Positions 1-34,562 of a stretch of DNA of 64,000 nucleotides are shown here, piece by piece; position 1 is the stretch's first letter; each line of letters opens with the position of its first letter. This stretch comes from a phage: assembly GCA_036930585.1 (NCBI GenBank), contig GCA_036930585.1_3066.1; one strand, written 5' to 3'. A model generated the notes under the pieces. The model saw only the letters and a list, made by a program, of their open reading frames with translations. It ran no database searches and was not told the DNA's origin. A program made the translations under genes and the position numbers.

Positions 1-524
<524 letters not shown>

Positions 525-551
525 AATAAAATGGGCCTTGCGGCCCACTCC

Positions 552-1054
552 TTAAAAGTATTTTTTAAAACTCATCATAACTTTATCATCAACATCATTA
601 TCAATCTGTGCAACAAGATAAGATGACAGTTCTACTTCTTGTGGCGCTGATTGAACATTATCAGAATTAAGATATTCACGAATCCAAGGATATGGATGTT
701 TAACCGGAGCATCGGTAATTGGGCATGGAAGACCACACTGTTTCATACGAGATACAGTTAAGTAATCAATAAAGCTCCACATGCTATTTGTATTTAATCC
801 AGGAACATCGCCATCTTTAAATAAATGAACTGCCCAATCTTTTTCTTGGCGGTTAACTTCCATGAAAATATCAACTGCTTCTTGTTCGCACTCTTGAGCA
901 ATTTTAACCCATTCATCGCCATCAGTGCCAAGTTGAAGTTGACGAATAATATATTGGGTGCCTTTAAGGTGAAGCTGCTCATCACGAGCAATGAACTTCA
1001 TAATCTTGGCATTACCTTCCATGATTTCCATGTTCTTATGGAAGTTAAAGGTAC
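552..1054 (-). CDS. nrdB: Ribonucleotide reductase small subunit NrdB, exon 2
   Basis: MEIMEGNAKIMKFIARDE... C-terminal half of class Ia R2; joins exon 1 across intron to give ...FYVSFAC|TFNFHKNMEIMEG. Confidence 0.85.
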
Positions 1055-1648
1055 CGTTATGTTCGATTGAGCTCGCTAATTCTCAACCCGTTCTCTTATG
1101 AACTGCTACATATTACTATGCAGACCAGACTATATCACAATCCCAGAGGGATTCTCCCCATTTCGAGTCGCTTGACCCTACGTCCGAAGACTAGTCGTTG
1201 AACCTTGCTTTGCAATTGTCGCCGTGCCATCGTTTATATGTTGATGGTGATAAATCTTTCTTATCACAATATGGACAATTCAATTGAATTCTATTTGGAT
1301 TTAATTTACATCTGTCATTATGTTTTAGATAAAATCCAGGACATTTACCAATGTGACCGCAGAAATCACATGTGATTTCTTTTTGTGCAGGATGGGTCCC
1401 GTTCTTAACCATTTCTAATGTTTTTGCTGATGTTCTTTTCTTATGGTCTTCCATCAGAATCTTTAGGTATAGGTCCGTTAGCATCTATCCAAATTTTTCT
1501 ATAGTTCAATTGTGCATCCTCTTAAAAGTATAATCATATTATACTAATTAAAGGTGCAAGCAAAACCTTGGCTGCTAGTTTTCCTATAAAGGACTTTCCA
1601 GCAATTAAAGGAGTTTTCGATAAACGTTACCGTTTAAAGGCGCATTTT
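1055..1648 (-). mobile_element. Group I intron in nrdB (594 nt) carrying a truncated homing endonuclease ORF
   Basis: Exon 1 ends in U (1649), intron ends in G (1055); splice restores the Cys codon and reading frame of conserved NrdB. Confidence 0.8.
1191..1484 (-). pseudogene. Intron-encoded endonuclease remnant (I-TevIII-like, 97 aa, zinc-finger part only)
   Basis: ORF inside nrdB intron with CxxC...CxxC motifs but no HNH catalytic region. Confidence 0.55.
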
Positions 1649-2324
1649 ACGCAAAAGATACATAAAAACGAATAGCTTCCAATGCATTGATTACATGGAG
1701 GCAAAGATAAAGAGACTTCATTAGTGCTCGTTTAGCTTCGGCTTCTTGTTTAATAGCTCGATTTAAACGAAAATCAGCATCAGGAGATTCTTTAGCTAGT
1801 TCTACAAATTCTTTAGCGTTTTCCCATTCACGGGTTTTAATCAGAACGTCATCATAATAACGTCCAATGGATTCAGCACGTTTCATGATAGCTTCATCTA
1901 ATACAATCTCATCAAATACCTTAGCAGGGTCATTGAACAAGTTACGCATGATATGGGTATATGAACGACTGTGAATAGTTTCGCTAAAAGTCCATGTAGC
2001 AACCCATGTATCAAGGCTTGGATCTGAAAGCAATGGCATAAGTACAGCAGACGGCGCACGCCCCTGGATGGAGTCTAACAATGACTGGTATTTTAAGTTA
2101 TTGATAAATATAGATTTTTGATGTTCTGGGAGCTTGTTAAATTGTGCAGCATCCATCATTAAGTTTACTTCTTCAGGCCGCCAGAAAAATGATAAAGATC
2201 GCTCAATAAGTTCTTCAAATACCTTATGTCGTTGAATATCATAACGTGCAATTCCAAGACCTGAACCGAAGAACATAGGTTCTGTTAAAACATCAACTGG
2301 ATTTGTATTAAAAACTGTAGACAT
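1649..2324 (-). CDS. nrdB: Ribonucleotide reductase small subunit NrdB, exon 1
   Basis: MSTVFNTNPVDV...EAIRFYVSFA; in-frame TAA immediately after 5' splice site. Confidence 0.85.
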
Positions 2325-2376
2325 TAATTTTTCCTCTTAGTTAATAGTTGGTGACTCGTCCGTGAGTCAAATTATA

Positions 2377-4641
2377 TCATAATTTACACGCTGCACAATC
2401 GTCGGCTTTAGGAGTTTCTATTTCATAATCATCAGTACCAGAACCATCACGGGTATTATGATAATAGAAATTTTTAATGCCATAATACCATCCGTATAAC
2501 ATGTCATCAATCATTATTGACATTGGAACCTTTCCTTTTGGAAAAATCTGCGGGTCATAGTATGTATTCGCTGAAGCTGATTGACATACCCATTTCAGCA
2601 TAATAGCTACCTGCGTAAGATAAGGTTTATTACCTTTCTTAGCTAATTTCCACGTATAATCATAGAGGTCTATGTTATGCTCAATATTGGGCACGACTTG
2701 ATTAAAGGAACCCTCTTTTGATTCTTTAACAGAGACTGGTCCACGTGGAGGCTCGATACCGTTTGTACTGTTAGAAACTTGGGAAGATGACTCACATGGC
2801 ATAAGTGCTGATAATGTGCTATTACGGATGCCAAAGAGCTTAAGGTCTTCCCGCAGCGACGACCAGTCACAAACGTATTTTGGAGCTGCGATTTGGTCAA
2901 TCTTTTTATTGTACCAGTCGATAGGTAATTCGCCTCGAGACCAACGAGTGTCTGAATAATATTCGCAAGGTCCTTTTTCTTTGGCGAGCTTAATGGATGC
3001 TTTAATGAGCCCATACTGTAATCTCTCAAATAGTTCATGTGTTAAATCGTTAGCATCTTCGTAAGAAGCAAAGTTACTTGCCAGCCAAGCTGCATAGTTA
3101 GTAACACCTACACCGAGGTTTCGACGCTTTTTAGCTTTTAAAGCTTCTGGAACTGGATATCCTTGGTAATCCAACAGATTATCAAGAGCACGAACTTGAA
3201 CTTCTGCCAATTCATTAATTTTATCTTGGTCTTGCCAGTCAAAATTATCTAGTACGAATGCAGAGAGAGTACACAATCCAATTTCAGCATCAGGACTATT
3301 CACATCATTTGTTGGAATAGCAATTTCACAGCACAAGTTACTCTGGCGAATAGGTGCCTTTTCACGAATAAACGGAGTATAGTTATTCGTATTATCAATG
3401 AACTGCACATAAATCCTTGCCGTTCCTGAACGTTCAGTCATGAGCAATTCAAATAGTTCACGGGCTTTAATACGCTTTTTGCGAATATTAGGGTCTTTTT
3501 CTGCTGCTTCGTATAATTCACGGAAACGGTCTTGGTCTTTAAAATAAGAATAATAAAGCTCTCCACCCATTTCATGCGGACTGAACAAAGTAATGTAATC
3601 ATTCTTTCCGAATCGTTCCATCATTAGGTCATTCAGTTGAACGCCATAATCCATATGACGGATACGGTTTTCTTCTACGCCTTTGTTATTTTTCAAAACG
3701 AGAAGATTTTCAACTTCCAAATGCCAAATAGGATAATAAGCAGTAGCAGCGCCGCCACGAATTCCACCCTGTGAGCATGATTTAACAGCAGTCTGAAAAT
3801 GTTTCCAAAAAGGAATAACACCAGTATGGCGTACTTCACCTGTGCCAATCTTAGAACCTTCAGCACGAATCATACCAACGTTAATACCAATTCCAGCGCG
3901 TTTAGAGATATATTCAACAATTGAAGCAGAAGCCTTATTGATAGACTTCAGTGAATCGCCTGCCTCAATAACAACACATGAACTAAACTGCCGAGTTGGA
4001 GTACGGCAACCAGCCATAATAGGAGTTGGTAATGAAATCTGTCGAGTAGATACCGCTTCATAAAAACGGATAACATGTTTTAATCTATCAACAGGTTCAT
4101 CTTGATGCAATGCCATTCCAATAGTCATAAATGCAAACTGTGGAGTTTCATAAATTTGACCAGTGGTTTTATCTTTAACTAGATATTTTTCTTTTAATTG
4201 CATCGCCCCGGAATAAGTAAATTCCATATCCCGCTCGTGCTTAATTTTTGATTCTAAAAATGTAATTTCTTCTGCTGAATATTTTGACAATAATTCAGGG
4301 TCATATTTACCTTCATTTACACAGTAAGAAATATGGTCAATAAATGAACGTGGTTCATACTGCCCATAAACATGCTTACGAAGAGCAAACATTAAACAGC
4401 GTGCAGCTACATATTGATAATCAGGCTCTTCAACCGAAATAGAATTCGCAGCGGCCTTAATGACAATAGTCTGAATGTCATCAGTTGTCATTCCATCACG
4501 GAGATATGATTTAATATTTTCATATAATTCATAAGGATCTACTGATGTTCCCTCAGATGCCCAAGATAAAACTTTAATAATTTTTTGCGGGTCAAAGCTC
4601 TGAGAAACACCACTACTTTTGATAACATTAATTAATTGCAT
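2377..4641 (-). CDS. nrdA: Ribonucleotide reductase large subunit NrdA (754 aa)
   Basis: 754-aa ORF with class Ia R1 features (C-terminal CxxC, active-site region); length matches T4 NrdA. Confidence 0.95.
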   Translation of the reverse strand: MQLINVIKSSGVSQSFDPQKIIKVLSWASEGTSVDPYELYENIKSYLRDGMTTDDIQTIVIKAAANSISVEEPDYQYVAARCLMFALRKHVYGQYEPRSFIDHISYCVNEGKYDPELLSKYSAEEITFLESKIKHERDMEFTYSGAMQLKEKYLVKDKTTGQIYETPQFAFMTIGMALHQDEPVDRLKHVIRFYEAVSTRQISLPTPIMAGCRTPTRQFSSCVVIEAGDSLKSINKASASIVEYISKRAGIGINVGMIRAEGSKIGTGEVRHTGVIPFWKHFQTAVKSCSQGGIRGGAATAYYPIWHLEVENLLVLKNNKGVEENRIRHMDYGVQLNDLMMERFGKNDYITLFSPHEMGGELYYSYFKDQDRFRELYEAAEKDPNIRKKRIKARELFELLMTERSGTARIYVQFIDNTNNYTPFIREKAPIRQSNLCCEIAIPTNDVNSPDAEIGLCTLSAFVLDNFDWQDQDKINELAEVQVRALDNLLDYQGYPVPEALKAKKRRNLGVGVTNYAAWLASNFASYEDANDLTHELFERLQYGLIKASIKLAKEKGPCEYYSDTRWSRGELPIDWYNKKIDQIAAPKYVCDWSSLREDLKLFGIRNSTLSALMPCESSSQVSNSTNGIEPPRGPVSVKESKEGSFNQVVPNIEHNIDLYDYTWKLAKKGNKPYLTQVAIMLKWVCQSASANTYYDPQIFPKGKVPMSIMIDDMLYGWYYGIKNFYYHNTRDGSGTDDYEIETPKADDCAACKL

Positions 4642-5510: not shown

Positions 5511-5830
5511 CATTATGTTCAGATAAGGTCGTTAATCTTACCCCGGAATTATATCCAGCTGCATGTCACCATGCAGATCAGACTATATCTTCAACTTGTT
5601 AAAGCAAGTTGTCTATCGTTTCGAGTCACTTGACCCTACTCCCCAAAGGGATAGTCGTTAGGCATTTATGTAGAACCAATTCCATTTATCAGATTTTACA
5701 CGGTAAGTAACTAATCCTGATGAAATTATTAAAGGGTAGTCCTACAATTTAGCACGGGATTGTCTACTAGAGAGGTCCCCCGTTTAGATAGATTACAAGT
5801 ATAAGTCACCTTATACCTAGGCCTCAATTA
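5511..5830 (-). mobile_element. td group I intron, ORF-less (320 nt)
   Basis: Intron starts UAAUUGAGGCC after exon ...UUGGGU and ends ...ACAUAAUG; only the last ~23 codons of an I-TevI-like ORF (..GLVTYRVKSDKWNWFYINA*) remain. Confidence 0.85.
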
Positions 5831-33763: not shown

Positions 33764-34562
33764 TATACACCTCATAGAACTTTTCATCAGGAATCCAACC
33801 GCGTTTAAATTCATTAAATGCTCGGCCGAATAATTTTGAATTCACAGTTATATTATTAACTGATTTCCATTTAGCAACTCCCGTTCGTTTATAATGATCG
33901 GGGTCATATTTCGTGACGTACCATTCATATAAATTTGGTATTAATTTTACAGCCTCTGGATTTGTCGCTGATTTATTATACCATGGTTTCGCTTTTTCAA
34001 GTTCAGCTGCTTTTGCAGTAGCAGCAACAGTATTTCCAATACCAACTAATTTTTCAGCTTTAATGCGTGGGTCATTAACATGAAGACGAAAAACTTCGCC
34101 TTTTTCATTTTTAAAGCATGTCATGCCTTTAATTCCAGGAAGCTTAACACCTTTATTAACGCCGCACCATTCCTTTGGGTTAAATGATCCTTTAATTAAT
34201 AAGGCGCATTTACCCGATTTAATACTTCTCATTAAAACTTTATTTTTCATAAAGTTTTTTGACCATTCAGATACTGCTCTTTGATGGTAAATTCTAGCAA
34301 TTTCATATAATTTACTAGAACGTAAATATTTTTCAGTGTTTAACATTCTATTCATCGCATATGCCATTTCACGATTACGATGAATTTTATATAGTAGAAA
34401 ATGTGCTAAAAAGTGTTCACGAAAAGTCAGTTTCACCAAATTTTCTTTATCATCAGAACCTCCCATTGATCTTGGAAGGATATGATGAATTTCACCCTTA
34501 AATTTAGAAACGCGGGTTTTACCCCGCGCTATTAAGTCATTATAGATTTTTTCGTAATTCAC
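33744..34562 (-). CDS. mobA: HNH homing endonuclease MobA (272-aa ORF; start uncertain)
   Basis: Free-standing ORF between 39 and 60, overlapping both; HNH-like HH...N...H region (EIHHILPRSMGGSDDKENLVKLTFREHFLAH). Confidence 0.7.
   Translation of the reverse strand: MNYEKIYNDLIARGKTRVSKFKGEIHHILPRSMGGSDDKENLVKLTFREHFLAHFLLYKIHRNREMAYAMNRMLNTEKYLRSSKLYEIARIYHQRAVSEWSKNFMKNKVLMRSIKSGKCALLIKGSFNPKEWCGVNKGVKLPGIKGMTCFKNEKGEVFRLHVNDPRIKAEKLVGIGNTVAATAKAAELEKAKPWYNKSATNPEAVKLIPNLYEWYVTKYDPDHYKRTGVAKWKSVNNITVNSKLFGRAFNEFKRGWIPDEKFYEVYNEICKN

Follow-up and report, generated by a model that had tools for sequence, protein, structure and literature searches.

The whole stretch of DNA analysed here (64 kb, in the following called the window) originates from a Tequatrovirus, i.e. 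a T4-like phage. Its first 25 kb are about 95% identical to many such genomes, and Escherichia phage 215Ecol030PP is the top match to this part. On the minus strand the genes nrdA, nrdB and denA follow each other in the order of T4, and nrdB is split by a group I intron. The locus comprises the following features:

2377..4641, minus strand: nrdA, gene order as in T4
552..2324, minus strand: nrdB, split by the intron
1649..2324, minus strand: nrdB exon 1, 225 codons and the first base (T) of a Cys codon (from the ORF list, the alignment with nrdB of T4, RB3 and Lv5cm, and the splice junction)
1055..1648, minus strand: group I intron of the T4 nrdB-intron type, 594 nt, with an endonuclease remnant within the P6a loop
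552..1054, minus strand: nrdB exon 2, from the GT of the Cys codon to the stop
114..548, minus strand: denA, GIY-YIG (Pfam)

Read on the minus strand, exon 1 ends with ...TCT TTT GCG T at 1649 and the intron starts with AAAATGCGCC at 1648. The intron terminates with ...CATAACG (in its longer form CGAACATAACG) at 1055, and exon 2 opens with GT ACC TTT AAC at 1054. When the exons are joined in silico, T|GT forms a Cys codon and the product reads ...AIRFYVSFAC|TFNFHKNMEIMEGNAK. The spliced NrdB has 392 aa, is recognized by the Pfam model Ribonuc_red_sm (2.6e-37) and can be aligned with the E. coli R2 protein from end to end, unbroken across the junction (FYVSFACSFAF, E=1.5e-128). In the intronless phage T2 the 60 nt around the junction are contiguous, and 59 of them are identical to the spliced window. 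Judged by both the E. coli protein and the T2 allele, removal of the intron restores the reading frame of nrdB. A preliminary description of this DNA had placed a 594-nt intron at 1055-1648 and had proposed that splicing restores the Cys of the conserved FYVSFAC motif; its coordinates are exact, and the T|GT joint bears out the proposal. In an annotation the two nrdB pieces should be given as one joined gene and the 97-aa open reading frame of the intron as a defective I-TevIII remnant.

T4 and RB3 have nrdB introns of 598 and 1091 nt, respectively, with which the window intron shares 98-99.8% identity. With a 701-nt query centred on the intron, 694 phage records were matched, 117 of which span the intron at 97-99% identity, T4 relatives and RB3 included. 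Within the intron the following parts can be distinguished:

1556..1648, minus strand: 5' half of the ribozyme with the guide GCGC/exon GCGU (P1), P2, P3, P4, P5 and the P6/P6a 5' strands (Rfam alignment of PD112, which has the same sequence here)
1535..1545, minus strand: 6-nt gap (AATATA) relative to T4 and RB3 (alignments), which destroys a TATAAATA box upstream of the endonuclease ORF
1441..1523, minus strand: original start of I-TevIII with the Shine-Dalgarno sequence AAGAGGA (1517-1523) and the start codon TTG (1507-1509), now leading into a 22-codon stub, MNYRKIWIDANGPIPKDSDGRP, that ends at TAA (1441-1443)
1447..1448, minus strand: deletion junction (1448|1447), GGAAG|ACCATAAG in the window and GGAAGAACATAAG in T4
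1191..1484, minus strand: 97-aa ORF, defective I-TevIII (ORF list; BLAST; 94 of 97 residues identical to the 97-aa product of T4)
1308..1370, minus strand: zinc finger 1 (codons 39-59), C39-x2-C42-x12-H55-x3-C59, equivalent to C211/C214/H227/C231 of I-TevIII (sequence; finger definition of PMC1865063)
1212..1277, minus strand: zinc finger 2 (codons 70-91), C70-x2-C73-x13-H87-x3-C91, equivalent to C242/C245/H259/C263 of I-TevIII (sequence)
1055..1213, minus strand: 3' half of the ribozyme with P6a'/P6', J6/7, P7, P7.1-7.2, P3', P8, P7', P9, the 3' extension and, as last base, the G at 1055 (Rfam alignments)

Residues 12-97 of the 97-aa ORF correspond to residues 184-269 of I-TevIII. The ORF opens with an ATG in another frame, and its residues 1-11 come from old N-terminal codons that are read out of frame. 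Compared with the C-terminus of RB3 I-TevIII (residues 181-269), 86 of 89 residues are identical (E=3e-66), which indicates homology and not chance. In I-TevIII the H-N-H motif lies within the first 50 residues, and two CX2CX12-13HX3C fingers start at C211/C214 and C242/C245 (Robbins et al. 2007, PMC1865063). In agreement, Pfam places HNH_3 at residues 4-48 of the intact protein (1.9e-11), so that the HNH part is N-terminal and the fingers are C-terminal. Both C-terminal fingers, which make up the part of I-TevIII for DNA binding and dimerization, are present in the 97-aa ORF. Pfam detected no HNH domain in this ORF and only insignificant zinc-ribbon hints (E above 0.05); its assignment to the family therefore rests on the direct comparison with RB3 I-TevIII.

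A tblastn search of the 64-kb window with full-length RB3 I-TevIII returned two stretches only, residues 1-24 (at 1509..1438) and residues 181-269. As the ends of these matches run across the deletion junction, the parts truly retained are about 21 codons at the start of I-TevIII and approximately residues 184-269. Residues 25-180 have no tblastn match anywhere in the 64 kb, and no reading frame of the intron encodes an HNH motif; the surviving codons 1-21 precede the catalytic His residues. The minimal DNA-binding domain is incomplete as well. Construct 166C was the smallest I-TevIII construct tested that bound DNA, and 194C did not bind (Robbins et al.); with respect to this domain (166-269) the remnant starts at 184, and residues 166-183 are absent. 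Because the nuclease domain is deleted, site-specific cleavage of intronless nrdB and homing are predicted to be absent.

The preliminary description had taken the 97-aa ORF with its CxxC pairs for a decayed I-TevIII-type endonuclease without HNH catalytic region, had suggested an alignment with full-length I-TevIII as a check and had named an intact HNH motif in the intron ORF as the observation that would speak against it. The CxxC pairs belong to two C-x2-C...H-x3-C units, the comparison with RB3 reveals a finger region that is kept and residues ~22-183 that are gone, and the search for an HNH motif was negative, so the assignment stands in all these points.

A displaced HNH half elsewhere in the window was considered and ruled out by tblastn, in which a MobE-like paralogue at about 34.2-34.6 kb was the sole match. 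The N-terminus of this HNH ORF (34221..34562, minus strand) is 46-57% identical to MobE and matches Pfam HNH with E=2e-4; the ORF is unrelated to the nrdB locus, and from its map position we take it to be probably mobA.

Taken together, we consider it highly probable (about 0.93) that the locus combines an intact group I ribozyme with a defunct I-TevIII gene from which a single 491-nt deletion removed the nuclease and left the fingers behind. This state is not a new finding since it has been published for the nrdB intron of T4. The T4 allele without HNH domain but with the fingers kept has been called an "eroded" intron (Robbins et al. 2007, PMC1865063), and T4 I-TevIII has been described as non-functional through an internal deletion, the intron being mobilized only in trans by MobE (Wilson and Edgell 2009, PMC2790892). 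The defunct endonuclease of the T4 nrdB intron was also described by Eddy and Gold (1991). The eroded nrdB intron has hence been known since its first description in 1991, and the window contains one more natural copy.

The closest known systems differ from the window in few respects. The T4 intron (T4p231, 97 aa; its I-TevIII is annotated as defective, the deletion being in the proximal half) resides in the same gene and is inserted at the same point (T|GT in the Cys codon of FYVSFAC), has a ribozyme that is about 98% identical and carries the same 491-nt deletion. The window intron is 594 nt long as compared to 598 nt in T4, owing to the 6 nt missing at the late-promoter box and two 1-nt indels. 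Codons 12-13 of the ORF read ED in the window and EE in T4, the bases in P8/P9 are of the RB3 type and not of the T4 type, finger 1 of the window carries the exchange G48C, and T4 possesses mobE whereas the window does not. Relative to the RB3 intron, the 491-nt deletion, the 6-nt gap and one base are the only differences. The active RB3 I-TevIII (269 aa, HNH and two fingers) shares its C-terminal 86 residues with the window apart from one substitution. RB3 retains residues 22-183 with the HNH motif and has a mobile intron (PMC1865063); the window has neither.

Regarding the finger sequence itself, the exchange in codon 48 (1341-1343, GGT to TGT, Gly to Cys; G220 of I-TevIII) is found in the window alone among the 19 alleles that carry this region. 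It puts a fifth Cys beside the metal ligands of finger 1.

Aligned with the RB3 intron, the window lacks one single block of 491 nt. In RB3 the left flank of this block reads ...GATGGAAG|AACAGACG... and the right flank ...TCAGAAG|ACCATAAG..., therefore the deletion occurred between the imperfect 7-nt repeats GAAGAAC and GAAGACC. Residues ~22-183 of I-TevIII, to which the complete HNH motif and the linker belong, were lost with it, and a frameshift resulted, 491 not being a multiple of 3. The loss of the HNH motif is the result of this one internal deletion between imperfect repeats and not of gradual decay. The same 491 nt are missing in T4. The junctions, GGAAGACCATAAG in the window and GGAAGAACATAAG in T4, lie 1 base apart at the mismatch of the repeats: T4 keeps GAAGAAC, the window GAAGACC. 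The window-type junction is present in 10 records of the phage database, which are wild isolates from Denmark, China, Poland, the USA and other countries, and the T4-type junction in 16 records, all of them T4, T4T, RB55 or RB59. A junction search in IMG/VR returned a single contig. The deletion allele, which was first noticed in the T4 laboratory strain, circulates in wild isolates from several countries, and for the homing endonuclease life cycle this is a data point of modest value.

We considered two alternatives for the origin of the window deletion. The T4 deletion could have arisen anew in the window, independently and at the same microhomology, or the window deletion could go back to one ancestral event that was spread by recombination. 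We regard recurrence as possible, albeit rather doubtful. A 1-base difference exactly at the mismatch of the repeats is what two different crossover points would be expected to produce. The deletion is moreover found on several haplotype backgrounds, each of which has a full-length counterpart: the window has the background of ESh24/U5 (6-nt gap, RB3-type 3' sites) and T4 that of G2285. The identity of exon 1 of the window to the compared phages is only 73-97%, that of the intron at least 98%. However, Manna, 215Ecol030PP and LH2 pair the window-type junction with T4-type flanking sites, the deleted length is the same in all alleles, and one event followed by recombination and one point change could account for all backgrounds. 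From the mixed combinations of junction and flanks in Manna and 215Ecol030PP it is clear that recombination among intron alleles occurs. The pattern of haplotypes and of exon and intron identities fits either recurrent deletion or one deletion followed by recombination. If the deletion does recur at GAAGAAC/GAAGACC, endonuclease erosion at nrdB may follow a repeatable path from 1091 to about 594, 304 and finally 0 nt.

Exon 1 (1649..2324) was compared with T4, RB3, T2, PD112, 215Ecol030PP and Manna, to which it is 73-97% identical (about 73-88% across the middle). The divergence reaches to about 31 nt from the intron; the intron is 98-99.8% and exon 2 94-100% identical. Such a sharp mosaic boundary between exon 1 and the intron would fit an intron that was acquired laterally, with a co-conversion tract that extended only a very short way upstream.

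The signals for the expression of the endonuclease are affected as well. Due to the frameshift the strong original start yields only a 22-residue peptide, and none of the candidate ATG codons of the 97-aa frame is preceded by a Shine-Dalgarno sequence. The 6-nt gap hits the only TATAAATA of the intron, so that this box is absent from both strands of the window intron. TATAAATA is the T4 late-promoter consensus. Middle as well as late promoters for I-TevIII have been mapped (PMC2988022), and in our reading the lost box is the late promoter of I-TevIII. The two C-terminal fingers survive solely as an ORF without a ribosome-binding site of its own, and the remnant is probably not expressed. The same 6-nt gap was observed in some full-length alleles (U5, ESh24); it therefore predates the 491-nt deletion or is independent of it.

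Further small lesions were found when 13 short alleles, i.e. alleles with the deletion, were compared. In the sister alleles these independent lesions lie in the stretch from the old start to Met25 in the 97-aa ORF:

six phages: 2-nt TA deletion
215Ecol030PP: 1-nt deletion
FL18 and ESh36: another 1-nt deletion
ESh36: 12-nt deletion
Lv5cm: 3-nt insertion
FL12: 2-nt loss at the junction

As a consequence, the finger-containing ORFs of the deletion alleles have 97, 88, 87, 73 or 69 aa. The approximately 215 nt encoding the fingers are free of small indels; all six such events map upstream of this part (about 0.001 under a uniform expectation, the samples being non-independent). Substitutions in the remnant are few, about three synonymous and three non-synonymous among the alleles.

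The indel-free finger region of the 13 short alleles leaves room for some constraint on the remnant. The pattern could equally be explained by hot spots, young alleles and non-independent samples. We regard it as improbable that the remnant is kept for a reason, be it as a small protein that pairs or competes with the active I-TevIII of co-infecting phages or as a repressor of the internal promoter of the intron. In its most specific form, the remnant would be a retained, dimerizing and zinc-binding protein of 69-97 aa, for example a repressor at an operator-like site or a dominant-negative partner of the I-TevIII of co-infecting phages. In favour of it, neither finger is damaged or out of frame in the window or in any of the 13 short alleles, every indel event lies upstream of them, and the I-TevIII fragment 194-269, with which the remnant overlaps, is a protease-stable zinc-binding dimer (Robbins et al., PMC1865063). 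It has also been suggested in a review, by analogy to I-TevI and without experimental proof, that I-TevIII may repress its own promoter (PMC2988022). Nevertheless, such a protein is very unlikely. A Shine-Dalgarno sequence is lacking, the real start leads into the 22-codon stub, and the late-promoter box is deleted. The N-terminus varies between the alleles (97, 88, 87, 73, 69 aa). The remnant starts at residue 184, in between the smallest DNA-binding construct (166C) and the non-binding 194C. Non-synonymous substitutions are as frequent as synonymous ones, G48C in finger 1 of the window included, and the absence of indels may reflect young alleles together with A-run and repeat hot spots upstream. 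Finally, other phages such as PD112 keep the intron without any ORF (304 nt).

In contrast to the endonuclease, the ribozyme appears to be intact. With Rfam at the gathering threshold only the td intron was reported in the whole window, and the nrdB intron was not. In a permissive scan of the window the nrdB intron reached 35.1 bits on RF00028 (gathering score 50 bits, E=3.7e-7); only the 3' core was matched and the 5' half was forced into the ORF. It is the ORF in the P6a loop, by which the core is split, that keeps the score below the threshold. The 3' half is aligned correctly to RF00028, with J6/7-P7 GUUCAACGACUA, P7.1/7.2, P3', P8, GAUAUAGUCU and P9. The ORF-less allele of PD112 (304 nt, 1529..1832 of the PD112 locus sequence) scored 68.6 bits against the 50 bits required, over model positions 1-253 and with P1-P6 placed. 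This intron and the window are base-for-base identical across the ribozyme core; they differ only by a 4-nt indel, which is located in the P6a loop, close to the core but outside it. By way of the ORF-less allele the conserved core of an RF00028 group I intron (P3-P9, J6/7-P7, J8/7-P7') is thus present over the full model. P1 is formed as well: the exon sequence GCGU pairs with GCGC at intron positions 6-9, with a U-G wobble at the splice site, and the final base of the intron is the G at 1055. The last eight codons and the stop of the ORF overlap P6a'-P7. The changes in the core as compared to T4 are located in loops or are compensatory, such as P9, in which GCAUG/CAUGC is replaced by GCAUA/UAUGU.

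Autocatalytic labelling with GTP has revealed several self-splicing introns in T4 (Gott et al. 1986, cited in PMC2790892). Given its identity with alleles from phages in which splicing is established (T4), and given the match to the covariance model, we infer that the window intron splices. The RNA part would fold, the guanosine-driven cut would take place after the U at 1649, and this U would then be ligated to the G at 1054. As the Cys codon of FYVSFAC is recreated by splicing, normal NrdB, the ribonucleotide reductase small subunit, would be made. The opposite reading, that the intron is splicing-dead and nrdB a pseudogene tolerated since the host ribonucleotide reductase substitutes, is hardly tenable: T4 can do without nrdB in the laboratory, but both exons are open and of full length and together encode a protein that can be aligned with E. 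coli R2 over its entire length, RB3 and PD112 have an identical core, which fits RF00028, and the differences from T4 sit in loops or are compensatory.

Since the I-TevIII protein is defunct, the intron would be unable to home by itself. It would be passed on vertically, or by recombination or co-conversion in mixed infections. The nrdB site of the window is protected from the I-TevIII of RB3-like phages because the intron interrupts the homing site. Trans-mobilization of the dead intron by mobE has been shown experimentally in T4 (PMC2790892). In the window the gap between nrdA and nrdB amounts to only 52 nt (2325..2376). mobE, which is found in T4 and RB3, is present neither in between nrdA and nrdB nor elsewhere in the window (tblastn), and hef was likewise not found. 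Lacking these neighbours, the window intron is left stranded, without any known way to spread actively.

Among the 13 phages with the deletion allele, mobE was found in T4 and a U5-type hef in ten others; only in the window and 215Ecol030PP are both genes missing. Helper endonucleases thus accompany 11 of the 13 deletion alleles examined, and the window allele sits in a phage without them. Of the seven phages with a full-length intron only RB3 (mobE) and U5 (hef) have a helper. The association of helpers with the deletion allele has a Fisher's p of 0.02, in a sample that is not independent, and the pattern fits the published idea of homing in trans.

The ten wild phages with deletion allele and helper carry a 522-544-aa gene between nrdA and nrdB with a 3' end 99-100% identical to U5 hef. 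The sole Pfam hint for this U5-type hef gene is a weak, sub-threshold one (REase_MTES_1575, E=2e-4), and the adjoining nrdA is annotated as truncated in several records.

Codon 42 of nrdB (2199..2201) lies at the mapped nicking site of MobE. It encodes Arg (CGA) in the window despite the absence of mobE. Arg was found in all 13 phages with the deletion allele and Lys in T2, PD112 and RB3. Wilson and Edgell (2009, PMC2790892) observed Arg at codon 42 exclusively in phages that carry mobE, and every phage without mobE had Lys (AAG). The Arg codon suggests that exon 1 of the window derives from a helper-bearing ancestor or was selected for resistance.

A life cycle of homing endonucleases with invasion, fixation, decay of the endonuclease and loss of the intron has been proposed for yeast intron-encoded enzymes and has been discussed for phages (PMC2988022). 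Every stage of this cycle is found at the nrdB site, the window representing the second stage. In the phage database about 85 records have a full-length intron at this site, about 30 carry the 491-nt deletion and at least five are ORF-less; the spliced junction is matched at a coverage of at least 80% by about 265 records, nearly all of them intronless. The ORF-less intron of 304 nt was found in PD112, CE1, BYEP01 and SP21535 with an identical core and at the same insertion site. In these alleles the whole ORF was lost between two ACAATTG repeats, whereas the window retains the stub and the finger remnant. Both repeats are present in the window (1504-1515 and 1210-1221), so that the same loss of the ORF could happen there. 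In T4 the decayed stage can still spread via the neighbouring free-standing MobE; the window has no such neighbour.

In the multiple alignment the full-length U5 allele (1083 nt) has a 2-nt gap in the coding region of I-TevIII near RB3 intron positions 301-302; if the gap is real, the U5 endonuclease would be frameshifted too. The Bp7 allele has a cluster of changes and a 3-nt gap around positions 553-570.

The thymidylate synthase gene td of the window contains a group I intron, too (5511..5830, minus strand), which is 320 nt long as compared to 1016 nt in T4. About 690 nt have been deleted at a TTTAA(T/A)AA microhomology with the junction near 5726, and the start of I-TevI and all but its last 22 codons are gone (remnant codons at 5661..5726). 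The td ribozyme scored 70.3 bits on RF00028, and in-silico splicing gives a Td protein of 286 aa. The two deletions, in td and in nrdB, leave both introns of this phage without homing endonuclease. The td junction was found in 17 phage records (HP3, U115 and others), in most of which it is unannotated.
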